From Rhynchopus sp. YZ270_cl-10 (taxonomy: Eukaryota), in assembly GCA_964035575.1 (NCBI GenBank), contig OZ037839.1:620001-684000 (forward strand): 64,000 nt of DNA, read 5' to 3'. The notes beneath the pieces were generated by a model. It was not told the origin of the DNA and did no database searches. It saw nothing but the letters and a program-made list of their open reading frames with translations. Below, piece by piece: positions 11,871 to 38,815 of the stretch. Each line of letters begins with the position of its first letter. Within the stretch, counting starts at the first letter, position 1. The translations under genes and the position numbers were made by a program.

Positions 11871-13223
11871 CTAACCCTCCAAATGCCCTTGCTTGTCATG
11901 CTCCTGTTTGTCCAGTTCCTGCTTGTCCTCGTCCTCTTGTGCTTGCATCAAACCTTCTCCTTCTTGTCCTGCTTTCAATGCAATACATTGTCTTGCATCT
12001 CCAGACACGTCTGTTCGTACCAGATCTTCTGTCCGCACACCTCCGAACTGTTCCGTAAACCTTGCGTAAATGTCACGCACACATGCATCGAAGGTCTTCG
12101 TGACGCCAAAGCCATGGTTCTTTTGGGCTTCATTCGGGAGAGACATCTCGTGAATGTCGATGTTGCCTGGCAAGACGACTGTTGTGAGTGCGTTGCAGTT
12201 ACCCAGGAAGTAGGGCTCGATCTCTGTGTCACTGGCAATACCTGACATGTCCAGCGTGGTCAAGGATGTGCAATCTTGTAGGAAATTCATACCAATGCTC
12301 TTAACATTGATCAGTCCTGATAAGTCTGCTGTTGTCAACGCGGAGCACTCTTGCATCCAGCTGTCCTCAATTTCGGTCACATTGGTCATCCCTGAAAAGC
12401 TGATGGTGGTCAACGACGTGCAGTAGGTAAGAAAGCAGCAGCCGATCCTCGTGACACTGCAAAAAGCTGATAAATCAATGGTTGCCAACGAGGTGCAATA
12501 CGAGAGGAAGTTGTGCTCAATGTGCGTGACTCTGCGCCATCCTGAGATGTCAATCCTTTTCAGCGACTTGCAGCGGTGGAGGAAGTAGTCACCAACCGTC
12601 GTCACACTCGTCATCGCGGATAAGTCAAGCTCTGTGACGCCACTTTCTTTGAGGAACGAGTTCCCTATCACCGTCACACCAGTGAACCCTGACACGTCAA
12701 GGCTCGTCAACGATTTGCAACTAGAGAGAAAGAGTCCCTTGATGTGCGTAACGTTGCACAATCCCGACAAGTCAACGGTTTCCACCGACGCACACTCGAA
12801 GAGGAATCCACGCTCAATTCGCGTCACCCCAGACACAGCAGAGAGATCAAGTCTCGTAAACGATGCTTCCGACAAGAACCGGTTCGGGATAACAGTCGCA
12901 ACCTCCGCCTGAAGAAGCAGAGAAGCCACCTCAGGATCCTTCACAGTCGACAACCTCGCTTCGGAAATGTCTGTCTCACCCAAGGCACGAAGTGCCTCAA
13001 GAGATTGGTACTTCGTCGACTTCGTCAACACGACTGTGTCTCCAGCACTCAGTTCTGTGATGTCCTCTCCTTCCTCCTTCCCTCCGAAGCCCATGTGGAA
13101 GCTGTCTTCGCACAACCCTGTTGCAGTCGCCACCTTCTGCCGCATCGTCTCCGTTGTGTCATCCTCACCCACCTCAATCACGAATTTGGTGTCATCATCA
13201 TATCCCTGCACACACAGTTCCAT
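11871..13223 (-). CDS. Ubiquitin-like domain + LRR protein (copy 3, longer LRR plus C-terminal extension)
   Basis: UBL N-terminus nearly identical to copy 2, followed by about 10 divergent 25-aa LRRs. Confidence 0.85.
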   Translation of the reverse strand: MELCVQGYDDDTKFVIEVGEDDTTETMRQKVATATGLCEDSFHMGFGGKEEGEDITELSAGDTVVLTKSTKYQSLEALRALGETDISEARLSTVKDPEVASLLLQAEVATVIPNRFLSEASFTRLDLSAVSGVTRIERGFLFECASVETVDLSGLCNVTHIKGLFLSSCKSLTSLDVSGFTGVTVIGNSFLKESGVTELDLSAMTSVTTVGDYFLHRCKSLKRIDISGWRRVTHIEHNFLSYCTSLATIDLSAFCSVTRIGCCFLTYCTSLTTISFSGMTNVTEIEDSWMQECSALTTADLSGLINVKSIGMNFLQDCTSLTTLDMSGIASDTEIEPYFLGNCNALTTVVLPGNIDIHEMSLPNEAQKNHGFGVTKTFDACVRDIYARFTEQFGGVRTEDLVRTDVSGDARQCIALKAGQEGEGLMQAQEDEDKQELDKQEHDKQGHLEG

Positions 13224-14883: not shown

Positions 14884-15835
14884 CTAAAAACCAACGTCAC
14901 CTAGTCTGCTGCGTACAACGTTGCTACACTTGTCCATTCCGTCTACTTTCGACAACCTTTTGCAGTTGTAGAGAAACCTACCACCAATCGTGGTGACTGC
15001 TTGCAGGCCGGTGAAGTCCACTTCCGACAACGATGTGCAGTTGTAGAGAAACCCCTCACCAATCGTGGTGACTGCTTGCAGGCCGGTGAAGTCTACTTCC
15101 GACAACGATGTGCACTCGGAGAGAAAATCATCACCAATCGTGGTGACTTCTTGCAGGCCGGTGAAGTCCACTTCCGACAACGATGTGCAGTTGTAGAGAA
15201 ACCCCTCACCAATCGTGGTGACTGCTTGCAGGCCGGTGAGTTCCACTTCCGACACCACCATCAGCTTTTCAGGGATGACCAATGTGACGGATATTGAAGA
15301 CAGCTTTTGTGCGGACTGCAACATTTCGCAGTTGTAGAGAAAATAATCACCAATCGTGGTGACTGCTTGCAGGCCGGAGAAGTCCACTTCCGACAACGAT
15401 GTGCAGTTGTAGAGAAACCCCTCACCAATCGTGGTGACTGCTTGCAGGCCGGTGAAGTCCACTTCCGACAACGATGTGCAGTTGTAGAGAAACCCCTCAC
15501 CAATCGTGGTGACTGCTTGCAGGCCGGTGAAGTCCACTTTCAACAACGTGCTGTTGGAGAGAAACTTGTCACCAATCGTGGTGACGCAGGGTAATGCAGG
15601 CAGGTGCAGTGTGATGCCACAGTTGTCCTCCACATTGGGTACGCAACTGAAACCAATGCGCGTTACGTCACTACGTGAGAAGAACTCTTCTGGAATCTCA
15701 GTCGCAACTTCTGCCTGAAGAAGCAAGCTGGCCACCTTCGGATCGTCCACCTGCTGCAACCTTTCTGCTGTGATGTTTGTCTCACCCAATGCATGAAGAG
15801 CTGATATGGCTTCGTACTTCATCGTTTTCGTCAAC
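14884..15835 (-). pseudogene. 3' (linker + LRR) half of the UBL-LRR gene interrupted by the retrotransposon
   Basis: Begins LTKTMK-YEAISALHALGE, i.e. continues the 5' half at 24845-25056. It has 8 LRR units and is near-identical to copies at 26372, 30812 and 48644. Confidence 0.9.
15817..15835. repeat. Target-site duplication, copy 1 (cttcatcgttttcgtcaac)
   Basis: An identical 19-mer lies at 24844-24862; the intact paralog (~49439-49457) has a single copy. Confidence 0.95.
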
Positions 15836-15905
15836 CGTGGGGGCCCGTTTTCGATGCATGCACCCCTATCCGAGATAGGTGATACAATACATCGTGGAGG
15901 TGATG

Positions 15906-18900
15906 TTACATAAGTCCATCACCGCCCCTGCTGTGCCCATCCTTCTGCTTCGTCTGCTTCTTCTTGAAGAAGCCTCCCAGCGTCGTCTGTCGCCCCTTCG
16001 AGGTGTCGTGGTGGCGGCGGCAGCAGTGATCCAGCGTACTCTTCTCTTGCACACAGTTCCCGCACCTCGAGAGTCTATGCTTAGTGCATGCTTCGTGTCG
16101 GATCGGTAACCCGTCGTCGTTGGAGTGGTGCGCAAAGCAGCAATGCATCAGGTCTGCCTGGGCGTTCTTCGAGCAGGCATCACACTTCGTCTTCCGGTGC
16201 AGCACACATATCGCAAACTGGAAGATCGGAACCGCTCCTTCAGGTGCCTTCACGGGTGCGTCCCCTGGACGCACGTGCTCATGGTGCCGGTAGCGAGCAT
16301 GCGCAGATGTCTCCTGTTCAGCCCGCTGGATGAATGGTAGTGCCCTCCTGCCCCTAACTTCTGTGGAGGGGTACGCCGTCTCAGCAGAATACTCCCCCAT
16401 CCATGTACCTCTCGCTCTATCGCCACCACGGAGCTCCGCCTCAGACATGCCTTCGGAGCTGCGTTGCAGACGGTACGCCACACCAGCATCGTATAGCGCA
16501 CGCAATGCCTTCAACGTTTCTTCTCCGCCGGCAAAGATAGGACGGCGGTCGATGCCTGTGATGGCGTTCGCCCCAAACGAAGCGAGAACATGCGTTACCT
16601 TCACCTTCCCCGGATGGAGAGAGCTCTCCGAAAAGGTTCTGAGTGAAGCCAACATATGCCCAAAGGTGGTCGTCTTCGCCATTTCTCTGTGGACCAGCGC
16701 TACTGGCACCACGTCGTCATCATCGTCGTCTTCCTCACTCCCGTCGTCTTCCCCCCCATTGTTGACTTCTTCCCCAGTCCCATCCCTCGGCTGCTTCAGC
16801 TTCGGCGCTATTCTGCCGGTCTTGTCCCCAGGTCGGATGTCCATCCCTGTGGCAACCTCGAAGTCGATGAGCAGCTCCATGTGGGAGACTTCACGTCCAG
16901 CTTCGTCGCTCCATTGTAAACCACCCAGCCAGGAGGCAAACGCCAGCAGCAGCGCACGTCCATACGGCCACCTCCTTTTCAGGGGGGTGTAGTCCACCAA
17001 ACTGTTCGCGTGTTGCGTCGTCGTGTCCAACTCCGGCGCCCACGTCCACGGGTATCGGTCTTCTTGCAGTCGCGGGTTCGCCGCTTCCGGTCTGCTCCAC
17101 TTGGAGCGTGCGATGAGGATGCGCACCATCATCTTCTGCAGGTCTGCAACACGGGCGCATTCCAAAGGTGTGTCCGGTGTGCACATGCCGCAGATAGCGA
17201 GACAGTTTGGCCAGGTCGTTCTGTCAATGTCCAACAGCAAGGGGTACTCCGCACGAATGCTACTCCATGCTTCACATTCCCACCACAAGTGTTTGTGATT
17301 TTCGTCCACCCCCGCTTCGCAGTGCACGCAGATGGCCGAGTCCCGTATGCGCGCTCTCGCAAGTCGCACCCCCGTTATCGCACCGTCAGCTACAATGTGT
17401 CGCAGCGTCCCCGCCTCGTAATCCGTCAAAGTTTTGCTTCGGGTGAGAGCAAGGGTTTTCTCCTTATCCACCCCCGCTTCAATACCCTTCAGGTTAGCTC
17501 TGCCTTTGCCATTGGCCTTCGCAGTCGTCTTCGTACGGGAGAGTCGAATGAAGAACATCCGTTCTCGCACAACGTGGCCCAGTCTGCCCAAGCTTACTGT
17601 CTTCACATCAACGATGCTCCCATCGTGCGTTTTCACTTTTGTCGTGTCTATCCATGACCACGCAAGGCGGCTGAGGGCTCGCGCAATCAACCCGATGGGT
17701 CCTCCAGTCTTCGCCTGCTTCGCTTTCGCACGTGACCTGCACTTTTCGACCAGCAAACAGATCTCATCCGATTTGCGTATCATCGCCGCCCACGTCATGA
17801 TCCTTCTGTAGTCGAATGCCACCGAGGGGTCGAGCAGATGGCCTTTCTCGAAGACATTCAGCATGACCGGTACGCTTCTTCGGTTCATCTTGTTCACGCC
17901 GTGGACCCCTTTCTCCACTGCAGTTGCAAGACTGTTCACGTATTTCCCAGGTGGGTCCTGCACCGTGATACCGTACACAGATTTCGACATCACTGCAGCC
18001 TGCATGATGCCTGCTTTCTCACCTTGAGTCAGCGGGAGGCATCCCACCTTACCTGCTAGCGGTCCGCATGCGTCGATGGTGTCTTCCAGCTTCGTCGGGA
18101 GCGTGGGCGTCCCAGCCTGTCGGGCCTGCACCGTCGCCCCCAGGCACTCCGACTTCTCGACGCGAGTAAGATCCGCGCCGTTCATCTGCACAGTTTCCTC
18201 TTCATCAGGACGGTTGCTCTGCCACGTGCTCTTCCCCGCGTGGACGCGTTGTCCCGTCAAGTCTGCAAAGTGTCCGGTGAAGGCGACACCCGCTCGCAGC
18301 TGGTCGAGGGTCTTCGTCAGGAGGTTGGTGTCGTCAGCATACGCCAGCCCCTGCGTGCCCGTTTCCTTCTCCACCCCGTTCATCCACACCGCCACCAGCG
18401 CATTCAGGAAGATTACGCTCAGTGGGCATCCTTGGAGGATACCATTCGTCGCAAACCATTCTTTGCCAAGACCTGCCGGAAGTTTGAAACGCCTCCCCAG
18501 CTTCTTGTATATACCCCGGATGGGGCGCATCATGTTGTCGGGAAGACCCAACCGTTCGACGAGCTGGAACATGATCTCTTGGGGAACACGGTCAAAGCAC
18601 TTCTGATAGTCGAAGGAGGCTAGATAGATAGGTGTGTCGTCTATCAGAGCCTCCTCCATCTTCGCACAGAGAAACCACAGCAGGTCTTCGGTTCCGTGTT
18701 TGTTCCGGAAGCCGTGTTGCCGCTCGTGAATCCAGGATTCCTGCCACGTCGCCACTTTGCGGAGTCGAGTCGCCGCCCATAACCTGTACATCACACTGGT
18801 GATGGTAATGGGTCGCTGCTTCAGGGGCTCCTCGCCTTCTCCTTTGGGGATGAGCACCACCAACGCCCTCGCAATCACCCTGGGCCAGTTCCCAGTATCC

Positions 18901-19397
18901 TCGATCAGGTTCAGGCAGCGCGCGAGTTCCTCCAGCAGTGTCAAAGGCAGTTCCTTCAGCTCCTCCACCCTCCACCCATCGAGGCCTGCCGCCTTTTTCC
19001 GCTTCATCTTGCCGATGGTCGTACGGAGGTCTTCGGCGGTCAGGGGTTCGCATACACAAGGGGCCCCTTCAGGAATGTGTTCCTTGAACCTATCAAAGAA
19101 CGTCGTCCACGCAGGTTCTTCGGAATCGTCGTACATCCGGAACACCCCACCCCAAGCACGGTCATCCATGAGCAGTTCATCCATCTCCTGGAGGTTAGCT
19201 GTAACCGTGCCGTCCTCCCGTTTCAGGAACGTGGTGTGTGACGACGTAGCCTTCCGCAGGAACGAGAACACCTTCGCTGGGTTCACCTTCATGTGTTCCT
19301 TCATTGTGCGGCGCCATTCCTTGATGCGGGCCCGACGCCGTTGCTCCAGCAGGACAAAACCCCTCTTCTTCAAGCAGCCAAGGCCCACACAACGCCT
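15906..19397 (-). CDS. ORF2 C-terminal part: reverse transcriptase, zf-RVT-like finger, tandem Cys/His module, PIP box (frameshifted relative to APE)
   Basis: Motifs KAAGLDGW, RPITIT, QHGFR, FDYQKCFDRV, GILQGCPLS, YADD and CVHC..ENHKHLWWEC, with C-terminal QTTLGGFF. Confidence 0.93.
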   Translation of the reverse strand, partial: RRCVGLGCLKKRGFVLLEQRRRARIKEWRRTMKEHMKVNPAKVFSFLRKATSSHTTFLKREDGTVTANLQEMDELLMDDRAWGGVFRMYDDSEEPAWTTFFDRFKEHIPEGAPCVCEPLTAEDLRTTIGKMKRKKAAGLDGWRVEELKELPLTLLEELARCLNLIEDTGNWPRVIARALVVLIPKGEGEEPLKQRPITITSVMYRLWAATRLRKVATWQESWIHERQHGFRNKHGTEDLLWFLCAKMEEALIDDTPIYLASFDYQKCFDRVPQEIMFQLVERLGLPDNMMRPIRGIYKKLGRRFKLPAGLGKEWFATNGILQGCPLSVIFLNALVAVWMNGVEKETGTQGLAYADDTNLLTKTLDQLRAGVAFTGHFADLTGQRVHAGKSTWQSNRPDEEETVQMNGADLTRVEKSECLGATVQARQAGTPTLPTKLEDTIDACGPLAGKVGCLPLTQGEKAGIMQAAVMSKSVYGITVQDPPGKYVNSLATAVEKGVHGVNKMNRRSVPVMLNVFEKGHLLDPSVAFDYRRIMTWAAMIRKSDEICLLVEKCRSRAKAKQAKTGGPIGLIARALSRLAWSWIDTTKVKTHDGSIVDVKTVSLGRLGHVVRERMFFIRLSRTKTTAKANGKGRANLKGIEAGVDKEKTLALTRSKTLTDYEAGTLRHIVADGAITGVRLARARIRDSAICVHCEAGVDENHKHLWWECEAWSSIRAEYPLLLDIDRTTWPNCLAICGMCTPDTPLECARVADLQKMMVRILIARSKWSRPEAANPRLQEDRYPWTWAPELDTTTQHANSLVDYTPLKRRWPYGRALLLAFASWLGGLQWSDEAGREVSHMELLIDFEVATGMDIRPGDKTGRIAPKLKQPRDGTGEEVNNGGEDDGSEEDDDDDDVVPVALVHREMAKTTTFGHMLASLRTFSESSLHPGKVKVTHVLASFGANAITGIDRRPIFAGGEETLKALRALYDAGVAYRLQRSSEGMSEAELRGGDRARGTWMGEYSAETAYPSTEVRGRRALPFIQRAEQETSAHARYRHHEHVRPGDAPVKAPEGAVPIFQFAICVLHRKTKCDACSKNAQADLMHCCFAHHSNDDGLPIRHEACTKHRLSRCGNCVQEKSTLDHCCRRHHDTSKGRQTTLGGFFKKKQTKQKDGHSRGGDGLM

Positions 19398-20910
19398 CTA
19401 TCCCAGGAAGGTCGAGGTCCCAGGTGTCACTCTTCAGTAGATGCTTCTTCTTGCGGATTTTCGCCCACAGCTGCCGTTCGTTCAACGATTCTGCAGATGG
19501 CTGACCGAAGCGCTTCCTCCGATCACCAATGAGCTGCTCCATCTGACGACATGTCTTCTGCAGTTGAGCCGTCTCCAGGTTCACAGCATCCGGCGTGTCG
19601 CAGTCCATGCGGGCCGTCCGATGTCGGAGAACGTCGGGTTGCACCTCCCCTCTCCCCCTGTGGCGTTGTTGCTTCGGGTCTGAGTCTGCAGCACCTCTCT
19701 TCAGCAGGTAGTCCTCCGCAATCTTGCAGAAGCGTGCCCAGCGATCTTCAACCGACATCTTCGTCAGGTCGGCTTCAGGGGCAGCGTTCTCCTGCATCAC
19801 CTTCGCTGCAAGCTCCTTCTCCTTCTTCGCCGGCCATTTCGTCCAGTCGTCGCCGATCAAAGAAAGGGGAGGGCGTGCCTGCGGTGCCTTCTGCTCGTAT
19901 CGCGTCAGGTCTAACGTCAACACCACCGGTCTGTGTACCGGGAGGCAGCTCTCTTTCCAGACCACCACTTTGGAGATCGCAGGGGCAGCCACGTGGTTCG
20001 CCAGCACCAAGTCGATACGTCTGCCAGACGATGTGGAGGTATAGCATGTGTTCTCTGCTGCCTTACCCAACTGCTGTGCGTAGGTATCTGCCGCATCAAC
20101 CCATTTGCCGGAGGAGATGGCCGCTCGAATGGCTAGACTTTCGTTAGCCTCTACGTTGAAGTCTCCGGCAATGAACACCGGTATGTCCCCAAGGCTGGCT
20201 GCTTCTTCAAAGATGCCTGTCAGGAGTTGCTCCGTGCGGTCGCTGTCAGCACACACACCATAAAACGAGAACACAGAGATGTTACGTCCCCCGCTCCCAT
20301 ATGCCACCTGCGCATGCGTAAAGCGGCATTCGTTCCACGCTTGTTGGGCACATTGTGGCGGTACTGCTCTGGTCGGTATGTCAGCGCACGTCATGATCGC
20401 AACTCCACCATTCTGCGTGCGCGTGCGCAGAGGGTCTGATCCCTGGCTTCGTCTGCAAGGGGCACCAAAGAGAAGCTGCTTGGCACCATACCCCTTCACG
20501 TCGTTTGCTGCCCCCTTCATCTCTTCTTCTGTGAGGCGCACCTCCTGCAGAGCACAAACGTCCACATCCCACTCCCCCACCGCAGGGTGTGCCCTCAGAG
20601 ACGTCACGTTTGCCGTGCCAAGCGACATGGTCGACGGACCCGGATGCTCCTCCACGTCTCCACATGTCAGCAGTGACCCCCTGCCCAAAAACGCCCCTCG
20701 TCGCCTCCCTCGACGCACCCTGTGTCCGACCCCTCGCCCCACCCCCCTTCGCGTTCTACCCTTACCCCTTGTCCCCGACAGCATACAGCCCGCAGAGCGC
20801 AAACGATGCTGACCCCTTGTTGGGGAGACAGTTTTCACAAAAACGTCTCGTTCTCCAACTACGCACGAAGAAGCCAATCCTGTGCCGTACCCTTCCACCG
20901 CACCACACCG
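19195..20910 (-). CDS. ORF2 N-terminal part: linker, 2A-like peptide and apurinic endonuclease (APE) domain
   Basis: GRGSLLTCGDVEEHPGP followed by TANVTSL, ALQEVRL, IAGDFNV, RRIDLVL and PVHRPV. The frame opens immediately after the ORF1 stop. Confidence 0.88.
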   Translation of the reverse strand, partial: RCGAVEGYGTGLASSCVVGERDVFVKTVSPTRGQHRLRSAGCMLSGTRGKGRTRRGVGRGVGHRVRRGRRRGAFLGRGSLLTCGDVEEHPGPSTMSLGTANVTSLRAHPAVGEWDVDVCALQEVRLTEEEMKGAANDVKGYGAKQLLFGAPCRRSQGSDPLRTRTQNGGVAIMTCADIPTRAVPPQCAQQAWNECRFTHAQVAYGSGGRNISVFSFYGVCADSDRTEQLLTGIFEEAASLGDIPVFIAGDFNVEANESLAIRAAISSGKWVDAADTYAQQLGKAAENTCYTSTSSGRRIDLVLANHVAAPAISKVVVWKESCLPVHRPVVLTLDLTRYEQKAPQARPPLSLIGDDWTKWPAKKEKELAAKVMQENAAPEADLTKMSVEDRWARFCKIAEDYLLKRGAADSDPKQQRHRGRGEVQPDVLRHRTARMDCDTPDAVNLETAQLQKTCRQMEQLIGDRRKRFGQPSAESLNERQLWAKIRKKKHLLKSDTWDLDLPGIEALCGPWLLEEEGFCPAGATASGPHQGMAPHNEGTHEGEPSEGVLVPAEGYVVTHHVPETGGRHGYS

Positions 20911-23900
20911 TCACCGCCCCACATCGCGCAGGGTGTTGCGGCCTACCAACCTGTTGTCTAGTCCCTGGACGGGACGAAACGCGATCTCGATGACGTCCCC
21001 CGCTACCTTCACGACAGTCACCGGGATGGCTGCGCCGTTGCCTCCCTCCTCGCAGTACTCCATGGAGTCGCCAGCCTCCAGCACTGCGTTCCCGTACGAC
21101 TCCTCGTTCTTCTCGTTCCCCTCCGCCTGCTCTTTTGCGGGGACTTCCGTCCGCATCCTGCGCGGCGGACTCAGCAGCGCCACCGTCTCACCGGACTCAC
21201 TGCGGTCTTCCCGCTTGCCCGCCAGGGTCACGGCAGGTGGCGCCACCGGCACTCTGGGAGCTGGCGAGGTCTCCGCGTCCTCCTCGACAGCCGCACAGTC
21301 TGGCGATGTCTGCACCGGCAGTGCCATGTCGGCGTCGTCCATCCGTGCCTCGGCGTCTGGTGTCGTGGGTGCGGGGGTCCCTGCGCCGGCGTTCTCCCCT
21401 TGCTCCTGCTCACGTTGTGCCTGCACTGCTGCAGCACGTCTCTCCTTCTTTGCCGCCGCTTCTTCCTGTGCTGCCCGTAGTGCCTCCCGTCGTTTCTCAG
21501 CGGCCACAATGTTCCTGCGTTTCTTCTTCTTCTTCGGGGACGCCACCACTACCTCCACATCACCGGCGCCAGCAACGTCCGCAGTCGGCGATGTGTCCCT
21601 GGGCGGTGCTGACCGCGACCGGTTCCGTGCTTCGGCGACTTCTACGACTACCCCCGGCTTTCCACGGATGGTGTCAGCCCTCCTCCTCCTGCGGCGCGGG
21701 CTCAGCTCCTCAACCTCACTGGACCCATTTCCCGCACGTATCCGCTTACCTGCCATCGTTGCGGGCTCCGGTGACATCACGTCCTCGGCATTCCCGTCTG
21801 GGAGTGTGTCCAACAATTCATCCGCCATCTGCATCTCGGGTGTTGTGGGCGCTGCAGTGGGCACTGCGACAGTCGGGGCCGTAGTAGCAGCAGCCTCCCC
21901 CTCGCGCTGCCTGGCGTTCTCAGCAGCAACTGCAGCAGCGGCGGCGGCGGCTTCCTCCTCCTGCTGCCAGAGGATTGCAGCAGCAGCGTCGGCTTCCTCA
22001 CGCTGCTTGAGGACTGCAGCAGCGGCGGCCTTCTCCTCCTCCTCACGCTGCCTCAGGGCTGCAGCAGCAGCGGCCTTCACCTCCTCCTCGCGCTGCTTGA
22101 GGGCTGCGGCAGCGGCGACCTCCTCCTCCTGCCTCAGGGCTGCAGCAGCAGCGGCCTTCACCTCCTCCTCACGCTGCTTGAGGACTGCAGCAGCGGCGGC
22201 CTTCACCTCCTCCTCACGCTGCCTCAGGGCTGCAGCAGCAGCGGCCTTCACCTCCTCCTCGCGCTGCTTGAGGGCTGCAGCAGCGGCGGCCTTCGCCTCC
22301 TCCTCACGCTGCCTCAGGGCTGCAGCAGCGGCGGCCTTCACCTCTTCCTCACGCTGCTTGAGGACTGCAGCAGCAGCGGCCTTCGCCTCCTCCTCACGCT
22401 GCCTCAGGGCTGCAGCGGCGGCGGCCTTCGCCTCCTCCTCCTCCTCCTGCCTCAGGGCTGCAGCAGCAGCGGCCTTCACCTCCTCCTCACGCTGCTTGAG
22501 GACTGCAGCAGCAGCGGCCTTCGCCTCCTCCTCACGCTGCCTCAGGGCTGCAGCGGCGGCGGCCTTCGCCTCCTCCTCCTCCTGCCTCAGGGCTGCAGCA
22601 GCAGCAGCGGCGTCCTCTCTCGCAGCAGCCGTGGCCTCCTTCGGCATGGAACAGAGCTTGCCCACTTGCTCCAGCATGGCCGCCATCCACACCTGCTGCT
22701 CCTTCCGTTGCTCCACCCGTTCTTCCCGCAACTGGGCCGTCAGCGACGCCACCGTCTCCTGCAGCAGGGTCTGGAGGCGCTCGCCCACCAGGCGGTCCAA
22801 CCTCTCCTCCATCCGGCGCTCCAACTCCGCCCACTTCTCGCCTGCGTCCTCAGGTGATGGGGCGGGCGACGTCATTGGGGGTTGACCCTTCGGCGTCCGT
22901 TGCTTCGTTGTTGTTGTTGTTGTTGGTGGAGGTGTCCTTGATGTGGTAGTGGGTGGCTTCGCTGCAGCTGGCGCTGTTGCTGCTTGGCGTGCGTGCGCAG
23001 CCCAGGACACCCAACCGTAGTCGGGCCCAGTGCCACGGTTGTGCTGCGCTGTCGCCGCCGGCGCCGTCCGGGCACCAAATGTCGGACCAGACGCATGTGC
23101 GGTATGTACCTTGGCCTTCTGTTTCGCCCCCGGACCCGGAGCCGTTGCCCTACCCCCGCCCTCCTTATGCCCATCCTTGCGGATCAGCAGCCCCTTCCCG
23201 TTCCCCTCCATGTCCATGGCCCACGTCGGCGGATCCAGCTTCGCTCCCACCACCCAACGCCATCCCTCCAGCCTCCGCAGCGGCGTCACCGTCCACCCTG
23301 CGCCTGCCAGCGACTCCATCACCGCTTCACCGGACGTACCCGACGGGAAACCGGACACCACGTATCGACCTTCGGGCGCCTTTCCCTCCTGCATGAGTGC
23401 CGCATTTGCACGCTCCTGATCCTCCTTCTTCACCCGTATCCCCAGGGACTCGTACCTCGCCGCCACTCCCCATCCCCCCATCCGGGTCGCCAGCCCCTGG
23501 GCCTCTTCTAGCCCCACCCCGTCCACCAACCACACGACAGGCAGATGCTCCGACTGCTCGCGTCTCATCCGGAAGAAGACACCCCCCTTCCCACTCTGCT
23601 TCAGGCAGCGCTCTGCTACGTCCTCCCTTACGTCGGCCACCGAGGAGATCAGCTTACCCTCCTGCCACAATGGTGGGCGGTTGAGGTTGCACCCCACCTC
23701 CGCACGCATCTTCTTCCCCGCTGACACCAGGTCCTGCGCTTGTCCTGCTGTCGGCCTCATCGTCACAAACACCGTCACCAGTTGGACGGCCGCCGACGCC
23801 TTCTTCCCCCCGTTTCCTCTCCCCGGCCTCAGCCTCCCCACCACGTACACGGCCGTGCTCGCCGCCCCGTTCACCTTCCCCCCATTCCCCTGCTTACCCA

Positions 23901-24723
23901 TGGGGCACTGCATCTTCTCCCCACCAGACTTCGGGAAGGACCCGAAACCCACCCACGTCACGCCCGGCGTGCGCGCGATCTTCCCCTCTGCCTCTACCTC
24001 TCTACCCTGCGGCACAAGACAGACCCCCTCCGACTTATCCACCACCTCCCCCCACGGCACAAGCGTCGATCCCACCCACTCCGATTGCAGCAATGTCAGC
24101 GCTGCCGTCGTCTTCTTTTTCCCTCCCCCCTGGGTGAAGCCCCCCTCCGTCCCCGCCTTCGCATCGTTTCGCGGTTGCGGCACGGTGTACGGCTTCTCCG
24201 TCACCTCCAACGCACCCCCCACCATCGCCTTGCGGGCCCGGTCTTCGGCGGCTTCTTCCCCCGTGCTCGTGGGGAGGACGCACAGGTAGTGGCATGCGTC
24301 CACGTACGCCACCGTCACCGCTGCACCGCTGCCCTTCTCCTTCGGGTGCACCTTCAGCACACGCACCTCCCCATCCTTCACCGAGAAGGCATACACCTCC
24401 CGCATCAGCACCTCCGCCAACGCCTTCAGGGTCAGGTGGTCCCCCCAGGACCCCTGCTTCGCCATCGCCGAGCAGTACCTCCGGTAGGCGGACGGTCCTC
24501 CGTCAACGTGCTCACCCCAATTCTCCGCTTCCCGTTCCAACACCCCCACCGCCATCTCCCTCAGCCCCCCGTGCGCCGTGGCGTCTCCGTGCACAGCCAT
24601 CGAGACCGCCTTAAATTGGCAGTCTCCGTTCCCCCCTGCGTCCTTTACCCGCATGTCGAAGCCCCTCAGGTATTTCTGCAGCACCCCCTTTTCCCCCCCT
24701 TGGCCACCTGCCCCTCCGCACAT
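20911..24723 (-). CDS. Retrotransposon ORF1: OTU-family cysteine protease, RRM-like region, Ala/Glu-rich coiled coil
   Basis: GGNGDCQFKAVS...WGDHLTLKALA...AYVDACHY is an OTU catalytic Cys/His pattern; RYVVSGFP is an RNP2-like motif; it also carries (KAAAAAALRQREEE)n. The first element-internal ATG is at 24723. Confidence 0.82.
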   Translation of the reverse strand: MCGGAGGQGGEKGVLQKYLRGFDMRVKDAGGNGDCQFKAVSMAVHGDATAHGGLREMAVGVLEREAENWGEHVDGGPSAYRRYCSAMAKQGSWGDHLTLKALAEVLMREVYAFSVKDGEVRVLKVHPKEKGSGAAVTVAYVDACHYLCVLPTSTGEEAAEDRARKAMVGGALEVTEKPYTVPQPRNDAKAGTEGGFTQGGGKKKTTAALTLLQSEWVGSTLVPWGEVVDKSEGVCLVPQGREVEAEGKIARTPGVTWVGFGSFPKSGGEKMQCPMGKQGNGGKVNGAASTAVYVVGRLRPGRGNGGKKASAAVQLVTVFVTMRPTAGQAQDLVSAGKKMRAEVGCNLNRPPLWQEGKLISSVADVREDVAERCLKQSGKGGVFFRMRREQSEHLPVVWLVDGVGLEEAQGLATRMGGWGVAARYESLGIRVKKEDQERANAALMQEGKAPEGRYVVSGFPSGTSGEAVMESLAGAGWTVTPLRRLEGWRWVVGAKLDPPTWAMDMEGNGKGLLIRKDGHKEGGGRATAPGPGAKQKAKVHTAHASGPTFGARTAPAATAQHNRGTGPDYGWVSWAAHARQAATAPAAAKPPTTTSRTPPPTTTTTTKQRTPKGQPPMTSPAPSPEDAGEKWAELERRMEERLDRLVGERLQTLLQETVASLTAQLREERVEQRKEQQVWMAAMLEQVGKLCSMPKEATAAAREDAAAAAAALRQEEEEAKAAAAAALRQREEEAKAAAAAVLKQREEEVKAAAAAALRQEEEEEAKAAAAAALRQREEEAKAAAAAVLKQREEEVKAAAAAALRQREEEAKAAAAAALKQREEEVKAAAAAALRQREEEVKAAAAAVLKQREEEVKAAAAAALRQEEEVAAAAALKQREEEVKAAAAAALRQREEEEKAAAAAVLKQREEADAAAAILWQQEEEAAAAAAAVAAENARQREGEAAATTAPTVAVPTAAPTTPEMQMADELLDTLPDGNAEDVMSPEPATMAGKRIRAGNGSSEVEELSPRRRRRRADTIRGKPGVVVEVAEARNRSRSAPPRDTSPTADVAGAGDVEVVVASPKKKKKRRNIVAAEKRREALRAAQEEAAAKKERRAAAVQAQREQEQGENAGAGTPAPTTPDAEARMDDADMALPVQTSPDCAAVEEDAETSPAPRVPVAPPAVTLAGKREDRSESGETVALLSPPRRMRTEVPAKEQAEGNEKNEESYGNAVLEAGDSMEYCEEGGNGAAIPVTVVKVAGDVIEIAFRPVQGLDNRLVGRNTLRDVGR
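21950..22610 (-). repeat. ~45-nt coding minisatellite (KAAAAAxLxQREEEx)n in ORF1
   Basis: More than a dozen imperfect 15-aa units seen directly. Confidence 0.9.
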
Positions 24724-24759
24724 CGCGTCGAGGCTGCCCCCCGCCGCCGTCCTTCTTCC

Positions 24760-24844
24760 CCGCGCTTTAGCAGACGCCTCCCCCCATAGAGGAGGGGGGC
24801 GTCTCCCGAGGGTACCCCGTGGAGGCGCGTCGTCTCTCACCCTC
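24760..24844 (-). ncRNA. HDV-like self-cleaving ribozyme at the retrotransposon 5' end
   Basis: Minus strand: P1 GAGGGU/ACCCUC; P2 CG(A)CGC/GCGCG; P3 GCC/GGU; L3 UCCACGG; P1.1 CC/GG; P4 AGACGCC..GGCGUCU; J4/2 GCUAAA. G1 coincides with the TSD boundary. Confidence 0.8.
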
Positions 24845-25056
24845 TTCATCGTTTTCGTCAACACGACTGTGTCTCCAGCACTCAGTTCTGTGATGTCCTC
24901 TCCTTCCTCCTTCCCTCCGAAGCCCATGCGGAAGCTGTCTTCGCACAACCCTGTTGCAGTCGCCACCTTCTGCCGCATCGTCTCCGTTGTGTCGTTCTCA
25001 CCCACCTCAATCACGAATTTGGTGTCATCATCATATCCCTGCACAAACAGTTCCAT
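24845..25056 (-). pseudogene. 5' (UBL) half of the interrupted UBL-LRR gene, in frame with retrotransposon ORF1
   Basis: MELFVQGYDDD...VVLTKTMK runs without a stop into the element sequence RVRDDAPP. Confidence 0.9.
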
Positions 25057-26371: not shown

Positions 26372-27379
26372 CTAAAAACCAACGTCACCTAGTCTGCTGC
26401 GTACAACGTTGCTACACTTGTCCATTCCGTCTACTTTCGACAACCTTTTGCAGTTGGGAAGAAAATAGTCACCAATCGTGGTGACTGCTTGCAGGCCTGT
26501 GAAGTCCACTTTCGACAACGATGTGCAGTTGCAGAGAAACCCGGCACCAATTGTGGTGACTGCTTGCAGACCGGTGAAGTCCACTTCCGACAACGTTTCG
26601 CAGTTGTAGAGAAAATCATCACCAATCGTGGTGACTGATTGCAGGCCGGTGAAGTCCACTTCCGACAACGATGTGCAGGAGAAGAGAAAAGAATCACCAA
26701 TCGTGGTGACTGCTTGCAGGCCGGTGAAGTCCACTTCCGACAACATTTTGCAGTTGCAGAGAAAATAATCACCAATCGTGGTGACTGATTGCAGGCCGGT
26801 GAAGTCCACTTCCGACAACGTTGTGCAGTCGGAGAGAAACCCGTCACCAATCGTGGTGACTGCTTGCAGGCCGGTGAAGTCCACTTCCGACAACGGTGTG
26901 CAGTTGTAGAGAAACCCGCCACCAATCGTGGTGACGCAGGGTAATGCAGGCAGGTGCAGTGTGATGCCACAGTTGTCATCCACATTGGGTACGCAACTGA
27001 AACCAATGCGCGTTACGTCACAACCTGAGAAGAACTTTTCTGGAATCTCAGTCGCAACTTCTGCCTGAAGAAGCAAGCTGGCCACCTTCGGATCCTCCAC
27101 CTGCTGCAACCTTTCTGCTGTGATGTCTGTCTCACCCAATGCATGAAGAGCTGATATGGCTTCGTACTTCACCGTTTTCGTCAACACGACAGAGTCTCCA
27201 GCACTCAGTTCTGTGATGTCCTCTCCTTCCTCCTTCCCTCCGAAGCCCATGCGGAAGCTGTCTTCGCACAACCCTGTTGCAGTCGCCACCTTCTGCCGCA
27301 TCGTCTCCGTTGTGTCGTTCTCACCCACCTCAATCACGAATTTGTTGTCATCATCATATCCCTGCACACACAGTTCCAT
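26372..27379 (-). CDS. Ubiquitin-like domain + LRR protein (7 LRR units)
   Basis: Intact ATG-initiated ORF with 75-nt repeats encoding LSEVDFTGLQAVTTIGxxFLxxC. Confidence 0.9.
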   Translation of the reverse strand: MELCVQGYDDDNKFVIEVGENDTTETMRQKVATATGLCEDSFRMGFGGKEEGEDITELSAGDSVVLTKTVKYEAISALHALGETDITAERLQQVEDPKVASLLLQAEVATEIPEKFFSGCDVTRIGFSCVPNVDDNCGITLHLPALPCVTTIGGGFLYNCTPLSEVDFTGLQAVTTIGDGFLSDCTTLSEVDFTGLQSVTTIGDYFLCNCKMLSEVDFTGLQAVTTIGDSFLFSCTSLSEVDFTGLQSVTTIGDDFLYNCETLSEVDFTGLQAVTTIGAGFLCNCTSLSKVDFTGLQAVTTIGDYFLPNCKRLSKVDGMDKCSNVVRSRLGDVGF

Positions 27380-30811: not shown

Positions 30812-31666
30812 CTAAAAACCAACGTCACCTAGTCTGCTGCGTACAACGTTGCTACACTTGTCCATTCCGTCTACTTTCGACAACATTTTGCAGTTGGAGA
30901 GAAAATAGCCACCAATCGTGGTGACTGCTTGCAGGCCGGTGAAGTCCACTTCCGACAACGTTGTGCAGTTGGAGAGAAACCCGCCACCAATTGTGGTGAC
31001 TGCTTGCAGGCCGGTAAAGTCCACTTCCGACAACGATGTGCAGGAGAAGAGAAAATAATCACCAATCGTGGTGACTGCTTGCAGGCCGGTGAAGTCCACT
31101 TTCGACAACGTTGTGCAGTTGTAGAGAAACCCGCCACCAATCGTGGTGACTGCTTGCAGGCCGGTGAAGTCCACTTTCGACAACAATGTGCTGTTGGAGA
31201 GAAACCCGCCACCAATCGTGGTGACGCAGGGTAATGCAGGCAGGTGCAGTGTGATGCCACAGTTGTCATCCACATTGGGTACGCAACTGAAACCAATGCG
31301 CGTTACGTCGCTACGTGAGAAGAACTCTTCTGGAATCTCAGTCGCAACTTCTGCCTGAAGAAGCAAGCTGGCCACCTTCGGATCGTCCACCTGCTGCAAC
31401 CTTTCTGCTGTGATGTCTGTCTCACCCAATGCATGAAGAGCTGATATGGCTTCGTACTTCACCGTTTTCGTCAACACGACAGAGTCTCCAGCACTCAGTT
31501 CTGTGATGTCCTCTCCTTCCTCCTTCCCTCCGAAGCCCATGCGGAAGCTGTCTTCGCACAACCCTGTTGCAGACGCCACCTTCTGCCGCATCGTCTCCGT
31601 TGTGTCATCCTCACCCACCTCAATCACGTACTCCTTTTCTCCAAAACCCTGAACAGTCAGTTCCAT
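30812..31666 (-). CDS. Ubiquitin-like domain + LRR protein (5 LRR units)
   Basis: MELTVQGFGEKEYVIEVGEDD... start, with the same LRR class as 26372. Confidence 0.88.
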   Translation of the reverse strand: MELTVQGFGEKEYVIEVGEDDTTETMRQKVASATGLCEDSFRMGFGGKEEGEDITELSAGDSVVLTKTVKYEAISALHALGETDITAERLQQVDDPKVASLLLQAEVATEIPEEFFSRSDVTRIGFSCVPNVDDNCGITLHLPALPCVTTIGGGFLSNSTLLSKVDFTGLQAVTTIGGGFLYNCTTLSKVDFTGLQAVTTIGDYFLFSCTSLSEVDFTGLQAVTTIGGGFLSNCTTLSEVDFTGLQAVTTIGGYFLSNCKMLSKVDGMDKCSNVVRSRLGDVGF

Positions 31667-32110: not shown

Positions 32111-35100
32111 TCACCTTGCAGGCCCCACCGTTAGATGCGCCGTCCCCACACCCTCACACACCGGCAGCTGCACCACAAGCACCTCTTCATCCTCCTCCTC
32201 CTCTTCTTCCTCTTCCTCTTCCTCCTCCTCCTCCCCCTCTTCATCACGCTCCTCCTTCCCCTTTAATTTGTGGATTGGTGCAATGATTTTTATGTCATCT
32301 GGTTGGTCCCATTCTGAACGATACCGGAGGTAGGAGGATAAGGCGCGTATTGAAACTGCATGGTGCGTGGCTGCAACATGCTGCACGCCCCGGGGAAGCG
32401 ATACTAGGTGGGGTTGCGACAGAATGCCATTTGCTGAGAGACGTGCCAGCCACGTTACCGCATAGACCCCTTCTGTATGACGCGTTGTAAGGCTGTACCA
32501 TCGATGCCGTCTCCCCTCTTCCACCCCTTCCACCAGCTCCTCCACCACCCTCCCTGCCCTCTCACGCCATTCCTCACAGCTTGCGGAGATCAGCTCCTTC
32601 GTTGTTTGTTTGTTTAATACAACCTGGCAAAACCCGACCGGTCTGTACCCTCCGCCCCCTCTTTTCTTGCTACTCTCATATACCCTTGTTGTCATTCCGA
32701 TGCGAATATCGTGCATCGGAAAATGCAGTGTTCTTGCCAAACAGATTATCCTTCTTTTTGTTAAACGGCTAATCAAAGTAAGGTTTGTAACGCCTATCGA
32801 ATGGTACATTGGGAGTGCGGAACGTCCTCCGGTAGTGGAAAATGCAGAGAGGAGATCGGTAGTGAGGGTTTGTGGGGTTTCATCTTCTTCGCATAAATTC
32901 GGAAGCGCTGAAGCGACCTGAGGCACCACTTCTGGGATTGTTTTGATAATATTCGACCGCCCGACCCACCCCATCAGATTCCATAACGATCCTTCAACCG
33001 CATCCTCCTCATCCGCAGTAAGACCTCTCTGGCATAAAGCCCGCTCCACAGCAATCACAGAGTTTGAAGCAAACCGATGTACCTCCCCAGCATCGTCGGT
33101 CCAGTGGTTGCGTTCTTTTGTTTGAAAAAATGTGTCCTCTTCCGCAGGGGCATCGTACGCAATGCTTTGCATCGTTTTTACCTCGAATTTATGAGGGTCT
33201 ATAGGGTCTAAGAATGGCAGGTCTGCAAAACATTGTGTTCCCCGGTTGATGAGAATGGTGTCGAAAGAAGTGGAGGGTGCTTCGAAACGCAAAATGTTCT
33301 GAAGCACTGCGGAGCCGTCTTCATAGCATTCGGTACACAGCCTTGCGAGGGCCCCCGCTGTAGGGTGTGAACAGCACAATGCAATTTGCAGGGCAGAAAG
33401 CAGCACCTCTGGCAGCACTATCAATGCCTCCGGGTTGGGCTGTTCGGGTCCACCTCCTGATTTCTGCAAAAATGAGACGACGGAAGCAAACAAAACAGTC
33501 TCCCTTTTACAACACGCAAAAAAAAGGGGTCCACTCCTCACAATAATTTCCGCAAAATCACATCCCAACCAACAAAGAATGAGCATCATCGCCTTTTCCT
33601 CTATGGGGTCTGGGTCTACCTCCCTCCGTAGCGAGGTGGAGAGCAGCCGCATCGTTGCGGAATTTTTTTCCTCATCAGAAAGCTTCATCAGGGACATTCG
33701 AATTTCTGCAAACCAGTCTGCAACGGTCCCTTTAACGTCCTCTGAAATGAATACACCTAATACACCGTAATATGCACAGTTTACTACAAAGCTTACTTCT
33801 GCAGAACTCCCTTCACCAAGGGGAAATCCTTTGAGCACTTCACCGCGTGAAATTAATATCTCAAGAACCTCGATTATGAAATGATATGATGTATTTAATG
33901 CATGAAGCAGCACCGAACCGCGGAGCAAATCGTCGTACACAATGGCGATTCCACCCTCTGCTAGCAAAGCAATCTCAAGCAGTTCCTTATCGCGGATCAG
34001 AATCGCAAGCCTCGCTAGGGACCGCACTGCTACCACCAACTCGCCCACCGTATAATCACACAGTATTGCTTTATATCCTAGAGATTTAAACGTACGAAGA
34101 AGTACTCCAAATCGTGATGTTCCCCCCAACGAAGCAACGCTTGAGTCTTCATAAGCTGCAAACAGCACTGCAACCGGAATCGAATGATACAAACCTTCTG
34201 TGACATGCACAAATGGTTCCCATCTGTTTGCTAGGATATCAGTAAGGTATTTGTCCTCAAATAGATCAGGGTTTTCCCATATCGCATACCGGAGCACCTC
34301 TGGTGAGAAGGTTGCTGTGAGAAGGGGTGGAGGAGGGTGGTGGTGGTGGTGTCCATCTTTCAGAGCGGATGACGCTGTGGTTACATCAATGGTGGCAGCA
34401 TCGCGTAGGATGCCCCATGATGTGGTGCAGAACGCCTTAAGCATTGCCTCAGAGCAATACGTCATGATACAATGAACGATACAAAGGGGCATATCACCAA
34501 ACAACCCACCCCCACCCCTACGCAGTAACGGAGGTGTCATTGTGGTTCTGGAACTAAATATCATGCCAGCTTGGAGTGGAAACAGATTGGGACATAAAAG
34601 CAAGGTAACGACATTTTCTCCACAAAGCTCCCTTTTTTGCAGCACCGCAGCGGAATGAGACTCCACAGACAATGCACGGAGAGCCTTTTTGGAGAGATTT
34701 CTTCCATTCCTTTTTGCCCCCTTCTTCTCTCTGATGTAAGCTGCAGCGGAACCAAGCATTTGGCTGCCATGAGGTGCCGTAGAAAACCCTGACCGCATCA
34801 TTTCCTCTACTATCCATGCTTCTTTTAGATACGGAATAGGGAACTGAATATCATGAAGAAGAAGCTGGACACGCCGGTCCGCGAGGAGTTGACATAAATT
34901 GGGAATGGTGTGCTGTCTGCACAAAATTTGAAGGGATTCGCAAAGAACCAAAGCGGGGGTACGAAATATCGAGAGCGGCGAGTACTTTAATGCGACCGCA
35001 CATCCTGCGGCAGTGTTCGTAAATATCTCAGGGCGGGAGAAATTATCCCAACACACCTTTCCACGTTTTGCAAGAAGTCGTAAAACTCGTGGTGAACGGA

Positions 35101-35632
35101 ACAGAATATCGATAGGGACGGTTTCAATGTTGGATTCAATGAGGCGTACACTTTGCACCATATCTGCACGGAGGAGAGCAGAGATAGCGGAGTCGTCTAA
35201 GGGGGAGGAAGCGTTACGTAATATGGCGGCGATGTCAGCGTCCTTCCTTCTGGTGTGGATGTAATGGAGAACGACGGAGGTAACGTCATCTGGGCGGTTT
35301 TTTGTGAAGAGGTACCGTGCATCCTGCTTCGCGGAGCTGAAGATAACCAAATGGGTCTTATGGAGGCAGAGGTGTACGTCCACTCCGCAGACCCAACGGC
35401 GTTTTGGGCAGACGATATGACGGAGGGTAATGTGCGGTTCGGTTTCAACAGAAATGACGGTGCCTTTGGAATCAAGGAATGTAAACAGACCGGTCTGATT
35501 GGACCCACAGTGTGTCTGAAACACAGCGTGTCCACGCAGTTCTGCCAAGGTAGTGTCTAAAGTGGCACCCTCCGCGCACACCGTCCCAGTCTCCATGCGT
35601 GCCACATCTACAACCTCGATGTCAGGTGGCAT
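32111..35632 (-). CDS. 1173-aa hypothetical protein with a possible internal F-box-like motif and an acidic C-terminal tract
   Basis: Long uninterrupted ATG-initiated ORF. LFGDMPLCIVHCIMTYCSEAMLKAFCTTS resembles an F-box; no family is confidently recognised. Confidence 0.75.
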   Translation of the reverse strand: MPPDIEVVDVARMETGTVCAEGATLDTTLAELRGHAVFQTHCGSNQTGLFTFLDSKGTVISVETEPHITLRHIVCPKRRWVCGVDVHLCLHKTHLVIFSSAKQDARYLFTKNRPDDVTSVVLHYIHTRRKDADIAAILRNASSPLDDSAISALLRADMVQSVRLIESNIETVPIDILFRSPRVLRLLAKRGKVCWDNFSRPEIFTNTAAGCAVALKYSPLSIFRTPALVLCESLQILCRQHTIPNLCQLLADRRVQLLLHDIQFPIPYLKEAWIVEEMMRSGFSTAPHGSQMLGSAAAYIREKKGAKRNGRNLSKKALRALSVESHSAAVLQKRELCGENVVTLLLCPNLFPLQAGMIFSSRTTMTPPLLRRGGGGLFGDMPLCIVHCIMTYCSEAMLKAFCTTSWGILRDAATIDVTTASSALKDGHHHHHPPPPLLTATFSPEVLRYAIWENPDLFEDKYLTDILANRWEPFVHVTEGLYHSIPVAVLFAAYEDSSVASLGGTSRFGVLLRTFKSLGYKAILCDYTVGELVVAVRSLARLAILIRDKELLEIALLAEGGIAIVYDDLLRGSVLLHALNTSYHFIIEVLEILISRGEVLKGFPLGEGSSAEVSFVVNCAYYGVLGVFISEDVKGTVADWFAEIRMSLMKLSDEEKNSATMRLLSTSLRREVDPDPIEEKAMMLILCWLGCDFAEIIVRSGPLFFACCKRETVLFASVVSFLQKSGGGPEQPNPEALIVLPEVLLSALQIALCCSHPTAGALARLCTECYEDGSAVLQNILRFEAPSTSFDTILINRGTQCFADLPFLDPIDPHKFEVKTMQSIAYDAPAEEDTFFQTKERNHWTDDAGEVHRFASNSVIAVERALCQRGLTADEEDAVEGSLWNLMGWVGRSNIIKTIPEVVPQVASALPNLCEEDETPQTLTTDLLSAFSTTGGRSALPMYHSIGVTNLTLISRLTKRRIICLARTLHFPMHDIRIGMTTRVYESSKKRGGGGYRPVGFCQVVLNKQTTKELISASCEEWRERAGRVVEELVEGVEEGRRHRWYSLTTRHTEGVYAVTWLARLSANGILSQPHLVSLPRGVQHVAATHHAVSIRALSSYLRYRSEWDQPDDIKIIAPIHKLKGKEERDEEGEEEEEEEEEEEEEEDEEVLVVQLPVCEGVGTAHLTVGPAR

Positions 35633-35786
35633 GGTGTGGATGTGTTATCTTGGCATGCTGTGACCAAACAAATAACCTAGGGGAAGGGAATGTGTTGCAA
35701 ATTAGTTTTATATACCATATATGGTAGTCGGAGTCGGTCCGACTTTTTGATTAATTAGTATCTAAGACCCCCCGGGCACCGGCGCA

Positions 35787-38700: not shown

Positions 38701-38815
38701 TGCCTGTATTTTGACAGGTGGTACCTGTCAAAATGACAGGTACCACCTGTCAAAAATTTTCACCTGTCATTTTACTAGTAAAATCACCTGTCATGGTCAT
38801 AACTAGTCCGTCGTG
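35787..38815. mobile_element. Non-autonomous CMC/EnSpm-like DNA element A (CAC...GTG, 2-bp CA duplication)
   Basis: ~33-bp TIR cacgacggactagttatg(g/a)ccatgacaggtgat, subterminal tgacaggtg repeats at both ends, and ca on both flanks. Confidence 0.85.

Follow-up and report, generated by a model that had tools for sequence, protein, structure and literature searches.

An APE-type non-LTR retrotransposon, termed family A here, interrupts a protein-coding gene in the 64-kb stretch of Rhynchopus sp. DNA that we analyzed (the window). The flanks of its other copies strongly support the view that the position of the insertion is not due to chance and that family A has a fixed landing codon in a multicopy gene family, the members of which encode a ubiquitin-like domain (UBL) followed by leucine-rich repeats (LRR). 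The long reading frame that joins the host UBL to the OTU domain of the element is likely incidental, a by-product of this landing site.

The element covers 9,008 bp of the minus strand, from 24843/24844 to 15836, with the host gene resuming beyond. It is a non-LTR retrotransposon with an OTU-bearing ORF1 and an ORF2 that encodes a 2A-like peptide, an APE endonuclease and a reverse transcriptase (RT). No LTRs were seen, as comparison of the element with itself returned only a repeat internal to ORF1, and there is no poly(A) tail at the 3' end. At the element's 5' end, the ORF1 frame alone is open among the three frames. Read from its own ATG at 24723, ORF1 (20911–24723, minus strand, as are all features of the element) encodes 1,270 aa and comprises the OTU domain, a middle region with no match by Pfam or Atlas, an Ala/Glu-rich 45-bp repeat (21935–22617) and a low-complexity tail that ends at a TGA. 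Two related predicted proteins, P0001 and P0009, begin at this internal Met, and a second subtype of the reading frame, ORF1-B, has a Met at the matching position.

A 2A-like peptide (20635–20694) lies just ahead of the APE domain; its motif (20635–20661) corresponds to that in PMC3708506, with H in place of N in the window copy and N in a variant, A2. The first piece of ORF2 (19195–20910) occupies the frame of ORF1, past its TGA, and contains the APE domain at about 20583–19954 (PF03372, E 1e-10; APE motifs found). The second piece (15906–19397) contains the RT at about 18851–18201 (PF00078, E 2e-19), a CCHC knuckle at about 17327–17274 and two Cys/His-rich motifs at about 16208–16008. The break in frame near 19382 is missing from contigs of sequencing runs X1 and X2 and from P0090, which is continuous over 1,664 aa; judging from these copies, the window copy is either defective or mis-assembled there. 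RNase H was found in neither P0090 nor P0097, by Pfam or by comparison with the domain of P0024. The 3' UTR (15836–15905) is 70 nt long and has a long predicted hairpin.

When the element is removed, the host gene has an open frame and is 86–90% identical to three paralogues. Its 5' part (24863–25056, minus strand), upstream of the duplication, comprises the ATG and the UBL, which is 94% identical over 71 aa to that of the paralogue at 27379. Its 3' part (14884–15816, minus strand) encodes a helical linker and BspA/TpLRR-type repeats. Between these parts lie the two 19-bp copies of the target-site duplication, at 24844–24862 (5' copy, the final G of which is possibly the first base of the element) and 15817–15835 (3' copy), both on the minus strand. 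The first-pass annotation had put the insertion directly after the UBL (VVLTKTMK), and the element start and the duplication on both sides bear this out. It had also described a frame of ∼1380 aa running from the UBL through the junction into the OTU. We compute 1,381 aa, identical to P0004, open without a stop from the ATG at 25056 to the TGA at 20911–20913 on the minus strand, with residues 1–71 contributed by the host UBL.

The host UBL matches PF00240 with E about 1e-3, below the Pfam cutoff, and in a structure model of a paralogue's UBL the strands and helix appear in beta-grasp order. Six of the seven UBL-LRR family members in the window are uninterrupted: the gene at 26372–27379 (minus strand), which serves as an example of an empty target, and five others at 6813–7799, 8444–9487, 11871–13223, 30812–31666 and 48644–49645. 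All six match residues 1–71 of the chimeric frame, and each carries a ubiquitin-like domain with a weak score, then a helical linker, then repeats of the BspA/TpLRR type. The family is arranged in tandem clusters, with a mosaic pattern of similarity. Atlas leads for the host gene were all <0.9, the top being ubiquitin+DUF285 clusters (0.85).

To map the landing site, we read flanks from predicted proteins (probably from one assembly) and from run contigs; the window junction alone was read as assembled DNA. Nine proteins are listed in the four ORF1-A clusters, eight of which contain the OTU start. In six of the eight, a UBL is joined to ORF1-A at the same codon (LTKxxK), while the other two start at the internal Met and are uninformative. 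The six fused UBLs are 55–94% identical to each other, the first 700 residues of the elements are 99.9–100% identical, and the residues within the duplicated stretch vary (TMK, TTK, VKK, TKK). Such diversity of UBLs and of duplication residues around near-identical elements is better explained by independent insertions than by the copying of a single occupied gene. We also examined 30 ORF2-type proteins (15 of the 34 main-cluster members, 7 of 7 of variant A2 and 8 others). Six have a non-element N-terminus beyond a few residues, and in four of these (P0084, P0130, P0015 and P0035) it is a UBL ending at the same codon. These 5'-truncated copies have four different truncation points and yield UBL-RT or UBL-tail fusions. 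Family-A DNA is thus found at one codon in ten different UBL paralogues (six ORF1-bearing, four truncated), in at least five element lengths (full length plus the four truncation points) and two ORF2 variants, in keeping with the preference for a multicopy gene family that had been proposed. If placement in the family were random, the probability that ten insertions would fall to within a codon of each other in a gene of 340 codons would be near 1e-18, as a rough figure.

Other data agree with a defined target. An 18-nt target motif, with at least 15 positions matching, occurs at seven places in the window, all in UBL-LRR genes. Among the public run contigs listed, empty sites at 24844 were seen in 5–8 contigs in three of four runs; the run contigs also include one 3' junction that leads into a different paralogue and one junction that varies by 2 nt. 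In run X1, contig depth over the element declines in steps, from 2,931 near its 3' end to 547 at its 5' end, which hints weakly at 5' truncation. No contig among those listed spans the 5' junction with 31 letters to either side, and nothing was found in the JGI metagenome contigs scanned. A UBL profile matched 13 of 225 proteins, all of family A or C (the latter a related family described below), 3 of the 13 having been in the profile. It matched none of 40 listed proteins of Diplonema papillatum, a weak control in that the gene family is possibly absent from those genomes. One caveat applies to these counts: UBL flanks supply an ATG and hence are easier to see than random flanks, such that only the figure of at least six out of eight full-length copies is free of this bias.

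Site specificity is not absolute, as far as these flanks indicate. Other 5' flanks are present in two of the six informative truncated copies, P0032 and P0129, the flank of the latter being a dispersed repeat that is also found at 38733 in the window. Comparison of frames ruled out that these non-UBL flanks are UBL DNA read in another frame. Among the run contigs listed, groups of two or three have unlike flanks at 15837–15864. No UBL junction was found in the four ORF1-B proteins, and both informative ORF1-B copies carry other flanks. A recurring target had been suggested in the first-pass annotation; the flanks mapped here, in proteins and contigs, place ten paralogues at the same codon and P0032, P0129 and ORF1-B elsewhere. 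P0097 and P0098 were considered as ORF2 partners of ORF1-B and rejected, their first 57 residues being common with the window ORF2 and their contigs equal in length to those of ORF1-A copies. They are treated as variant A2, which we infer to be paired with ORF1-A.

How surprising is it that the frame remains open across the junction? A chance of 1 in 3 had been proposed. In 10,000 shuffles, the 120-nt leader was open in a given frame with a frequency of 0.39, giving a probability of in-frame fusion for one site of 0.39 × 1/3 = 0.13, which is lower than proposed but still not rare. With a fixed site, all full-length copies share one frame, and hence the six fusions count as a single event, for which the prior is about 0.13. 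Chance and site preference had been presented as alternatives; site preference has held, and in-frame fusion is no alternative to it. That the fusion is likely incidental follows from the frame having been fixed once, the truncated UBL-RT fusions, the retention of ORF1's own ATG, the predicted ribozyme (below) and the presence of OTU domains elsewhere. The family A case was itself picked for being in frame.

At its 5' end, the element begins with a predicted HDV-like ribozyme (24761–24844, minus strand), the 84 bases of which fit a double pseudoknot as defined by our own descriptor, with a P1 of 7 bp, P2 of 4 bp, P3 of 2 bp, P1.1 of 2 bp and a long P4. The putative catalytic C is at 24770, and cleavage is predicted between 24845 and 24844. 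Within the 261-nt element end, the descriptor matches at 24844–24761, compared to 0 of 3,000 shuffles, a null that is only indicative given that the descriptor was hand-made from HDV features by someone who already knew this sequence. It matches one other place in the window. Rfam returned no HDV-like match at the element's 5' end. Plain folding of this end is no better than that of shuffled sequences (z −1.23), as expected of a pseudoknot. Counting against the ribozyme, P2 spans just 4 bp, and P1 has a probability of 0.28 in a pseudoknot-free fold that includes 60 nt of host sequence. The translated leader is 72% identical between ORF1-A and ORF1-B, compared to only 56% for the OTU, as an RNA constraint would give. 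Ribozymes of this type cut at the +1 position of the element and free L1Tc and R2 RNA from host co-transcripts, with an activity that varies with upstream sequence (PMC3383444, PMC4035085, PMC3774820), and hence some uncut fusion message is possible.

The OTU-fold cysteine protease domain (24256–24684, minus strand; PF02338, E 9e-10) retains the Cys (codon 24619–24621) and His (codon 24289–24291) of the active site. Both are invariant in an alignment of 61 rows and are present in 147 and 135, respectively, of 148 matches. The position three residues before the Cys is Asn in the window OTU and Asp in 134 of 148 relatives, and the position two residues after the His is Leu in family A and Val in ORF1-B, compared to Asn, Asp or Glu in 113 of 148. 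Asp at Cys-3 and Asn/Asp at His+2 are replaced in both A and ORF1-B and kept in family C and P0024, each of which has Asp at His+2. Lacking the usual third catalytic residue, the OTU of family A may have weak or altered activity. A structure model of the domain (pLDDT 95) gives its best TM scores, 0.82–0.87, to OTUD5, OTUD3 and OTUD1, and sequence searches agree. Entries for Otu1/OTUD2 rank 19, 35 and 40 (TM 0.69–0.71).

OTU domains are also carried by the D. papillatum element protein P0024 (OTU-APE-RT-RNase H), by P0034 and by P0228. Family C, the P0034 cluster (15 of 19 members listed), is 32% identical to the window ORF2 region and has an OTU-APE-RT arrangement with an RNase H-like tail. 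Its own landing site in these genes is likewise fixed but lies 22 codons further downstream, as seen in P0125, P0122 and the truncated P0121. Three paralogues are filled at site 2, with P0116 repeating the P0121 junction; P0122 has non-host sequence ahead of site 1 as well, so in this gene both sites appear to be filled. The full-length copies (P0125 and P0122) are in frame with the host gene. ORF1 of family C includes a 74-residue ubiquitin-like domain that ends in LRGG (PF00240, E 2e-9), with no Met ahead of it; past the junction, a Met is first reached 49 residues inside the domain. We considered whether family C is natively a single ORF and rejected this, since the change of frame between ORF1 and ORF2 in P0125 is not present in P0118 or P0122. 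Family D (P0228) is a fourth OTU-APE-RT family, and its fragment at 46083–45670 is outside any UBL-LRR gene, indicating that carriage of an OTU does not imply targeting. In a quick RT tree (43 of 44 rows, P0038 having been dropped and the careful search being unfinished), families A and C and the D. papillatum elements form one group of 26 rows (SH-aLRT 100). Within it, a subgroup with support 93 unites A, D. papillatum P0018 and four further rows, and C is loosely placed with P0024 (81). Because A and C fall in separate subgroups of this tree, their targeting of the same genes may be convergent.

Three other explanations of the fusions deserve consideration. A single ancestral insertion could have spread by duplication, gene conversion or assembly collapse, with no site-specific enzyme. 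The tandem clusters with mosaic similarity would suit such a history, as would the recombination described for trypanosome RHS genes (PMC7563717). However, the flanks vary inside the duplication itself, the site harbors multiple element lengths and both ORF2 variants, and a distant family occupies a second fixed site, observations that in our reading already largely refute this explanation and leave it with hardly any probability. Slightly better placed, though still very improbable, is the idea that the chimera has been selected, either as an Otu1/YOD1-like deubiquitinase or as a weapon that disables host ubiquitin-pathway receptors. A UBL-OTU architecture is indeed found in six paralogues, the OTU keeps its Cys and His, and the UBL of P0125 has a weak match, just above the cutoff, to the Pfam family OTU1_UBXL (PF21403, E 1e-4). 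On the other hand, elements ≥99.9% identical imply that the fusions are recent insertions, UBL-RT fragments arise at the same site, the OTU lacks the Asp and Asn/Asp/Glu normally found at Cys-3 and His+2, its fold is closer to OTUD5/3/1, and all but one of the family members in the window are uninterrupted. The analogy to Otu1/YOD1 drawn in the first-pass annotation is not supported: the UBL belongs to the host and was brought next to the OTU by insertion, the fold is nearer to that of other OTUs, and Pfam finds no zinc finger in ORF1. The six fusions likewise gave no match to PF21403 (UBX-like) at E ≤ 0.1. The host–element conflict over ubiquitin receptors also raised there found no direct evidence, and OTU domains are also carried by relatives that are unlinked to these genes (P0024 and family D).

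A more serious contender, which we nonetheless consider unlikely, is that the elements land in frame on purpose. On uncut, capped host transcripts, ribosomes that begin at the start codon of the UBL would read on into ORF1, the cut RNA would serve as the insertion template, and family C would shed the host leader by means of its own LRGG domain. An open frame continuous with that of the host is seen in both of the lineages that target these genes, A at site 1 and C at site 2; the LRGG domain of family C has no preceding Met; the leader frame is open in ORF1-A and ORF1-B alike; and ribozyme-cut L1Tc RNAs are described as uncapped and poorly translated (PMC3383444). Against this, family A has kept its own Met in two subtypes, neither an LRGG domain nor a 2A-like motif lies between its UBL and OTU, and the case was chosen for being in frame. 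In addition, ORF1-B, with the same open leader, is outside UBL genes in both informative copies, and non-AUG initiation could account for family C. Non-AUG initiation is known for R2. In its strongest form, two distant OTU-LINE lineages would have converged on one gene family and borrowed its capped 5' ends and start codons for ORF1, with C then cutting after LRGG, possibly by its own OTU, which would amount to a retrotransposon polyprotein switch built from ubiquitin and a protease; the odds seem to us clearly against this, and for family C the start-codon reading draws on two proteins. If in-frame landing were functional, it would explain how protein is produced from ribozyme-cut, uncapped LINE RNAs. 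A by-product reading must count the in-frame state of family C as a second coincidence.

Overall, we consider it probable that family A inserts at a fixed codon nicked by its APE endonuclease and that the fusion is a by-product cut by the predicted ribozyme. The endonuclease would recognize the target sequence, perhaps aided by the two C-terminal Cys/His motifs, and likely nicks the fixed codon for target-primed reverse transcription, the nicks being about 18–19 nt apart. The element would be co-transcribed in the sense orientation from the host gene cluster, the predicted ribozyme would self-cleave at 24844 and release the element RNA from the host transcript, and ORF1 would be translated from the element's own ATG at 24723. 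By analogy to what has been proposed for other elements that target multicopy genes, the element likely benefits from having a target that is both transcribed and redundant. The OTU would be a lineage-wide passenger, with ubiquitin conjugates or the products of the element itself as its likely substrates, and would not have been acquired to match the ubiquitin-like target.

The closest parallel that we found is the hot spot for ingi/RIME within the RHS genes of trypanosomes (PMC7563717), along with the relative site specificity of L1Tc (PMC5814959). In both systems, an APE/RT non-LTR element uses one site in a multicopy protein-coding family and splits the gene in two, and both have a 2A-like peptide ahead of the APE. 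A 5' HDV-like ribozyme, the Pr77-type hallmark of the Ingi clade, is predicted for family A by our descriptor. The target here, a UBL plus BspA-type LRR family, is unrelated to RHS; it behaves like RHS without being RHS. Family A further differs in its long OTU-bearing ORF1, 19-bp duplication, lack of RNase H and poly(A) tail, and CCHC knuckle plus two Cys/His motifs in place of C2H2 fingers, and a second lineage occupies a second fixed site of the same genes. Ingi clade elements are described as having a single ORF without ORF1, a poly(A) tail and C-terminal C2H2 fingers (PMC3708506, PMC12278014, PMC5814959), and the 2A-like peptide ahead of the APE is not exclusive to them, being reported in six clades (PMC3708506). 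Given its ORF1 and its lack of RNase H and poly(A), the element is not assigned to the Ingi clade. None of 65 RT matches was a named ingi or L1Tc, and the nearest named relatives are D. papillatum proteins, at 35–44% identity, which makes a diplonemid-like euglenozoan the likely host.

Like family A, elements of the R2, R1 and Tx1 clades, Utopia and Keno keep to one position in a gene family with redundant members, share a target gene among several families, leave 5'-truncated copies at that position and are freed from the transcript of the host by a ribozyme, the last predicted here (PMC4640811, PMC3774820). Their targets are multicopy RNA genes, whereas family A targets a protein-coding family whose members have diverged. 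R1 and R2 share the 28S gene, at nearby sites. Otu1/YOD1 (OTUD2) consists of a UBX-like domain, an OTU and a C-terminal C2H2 finger. The family A fusion is similar in having a ubiquitin-like domain N-terminal to an OTU in one frame. However, its two domains come from different genetic entities, with a predicted self-cleaving RNA between them, its OTU is nearer to OTUD5/3/1, and it has no detected zinc finger; on these sequence grounds, it is not filed as Otu1. OTU and other deubiquitinase-type domains are already known in LINEs (PMC13405545, PMC4640811), including an OTU-ORF2p of Symbiodinium and, in Dualen, a Josephin domain (PMC13405545) and the Ulp1 protease in NeSL/Utopia (PMC4640811). Family A shares with these and with P0024 a LINE-borne OTU or related protease and a 2A-like peptide. 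It differs in that its OTU is located at the start of ORF1, not in ORF2, and is missing the third residue of the usual catalytic set.

To our knowledge, LINEs with strict targeting have been described chiefly in RNA genes and in simple repeats. The trypanosome RHS hot spot is the protein-coding precedent that we found, and the UBL-LRR family would be a second case, in unrelated genes. What is new relative to RHS is that two fixed sites in one gene family are used by two distant lineages. We found no report of LINEs targeting UBL-LRR genes in the literature searched; subscription papers, Repbase and supplements, which fell outside the search, may describe them. The system makes it possible to test whether gene families act as safe harbors and how an APE recognizes a diverged coding target. 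It also carries a warning for annotation, as gene-calling programs make believable multi-domain 'genes' out of insertions of this kind.

In the family A element, the non-LTR retrotransposon that splits one UBL-LRR gene (a multicopy host family encoding a ubiquitin-like domain and leucine-rich repeats), ORF1 ends in a TGA stop followed by CGG (window 20908–20913, minus strand), which we take to be a leaky stop-codon context, in the same frame as ORF2. A 2A-like peptide lies ∼90 codons beyond this TGA. Read from the sequence, ORF2 could be made via stop-codon readthrough at the TGA and then a ribosomal skip at the 2A-like peptide. A second putative variant of ORF2 (P0097 and P0098) is ∼77% identical to the continuous ORF2 (P0090) and shares its first 57 residues, which suggests recombination of the two ORF2 variants behind one common ORF1.

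ORF2 of family A also carries two copies of a C-x2-H-x4-C-x2-C-x9/10-H-CC-x2-HH motif (16008–16208, minus strand), a candidate DNA-binding module to which Pfam returned no match; P0020–P0023 contain one copy. The last ∼60 bases of the element (15836–15895), a predicted hairpin, are common to ∼6 contigs per sequencing run whose upstream sequences differ, and these contigs may represent short non-autonomous partners.

In the distant family C (P0125, P0122 and P0118, outside the window), ORF1 bears a ubiquitin-like domain with a C-terminal LRGG and no preceding Met, and an OTU-APE-RT ORF2 follows downstream. Judging by these domains, the ubiquitin-like domain and the OTU are a possible self-processing pair. 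Family D, a further OTU-APE-RT lineage, is represented in the window by a 3'-terminal fragment (45670–46083, minus strand; 93% to P0228), which is truncated at its 5' end and lies inside no UBL-LRR gene.

Within one leucine-rich repeat of the interrupted UBL-LRR gene, a 51-nt segment (15255–15305) is an in-frame inverted copy (94%) of 12359–12409 in the neighbouring paralogue. A decayed UBL-like piece (6632–6772, minus strand) sits directly downstream of the paralogue at 6813. Two UBL-LRR genes flank an isolated LSU rRNA fragment (10341–10500) and the adjoining tandem array (10620–11170; 79 copies of a 7-bp unit). Elsewhere on the minus strand, Pfam identified a cytochrome b5-fused fatty-acid desaturase (4674–6227) and gave no match for a 1,177-aa ORF (32111–35644).
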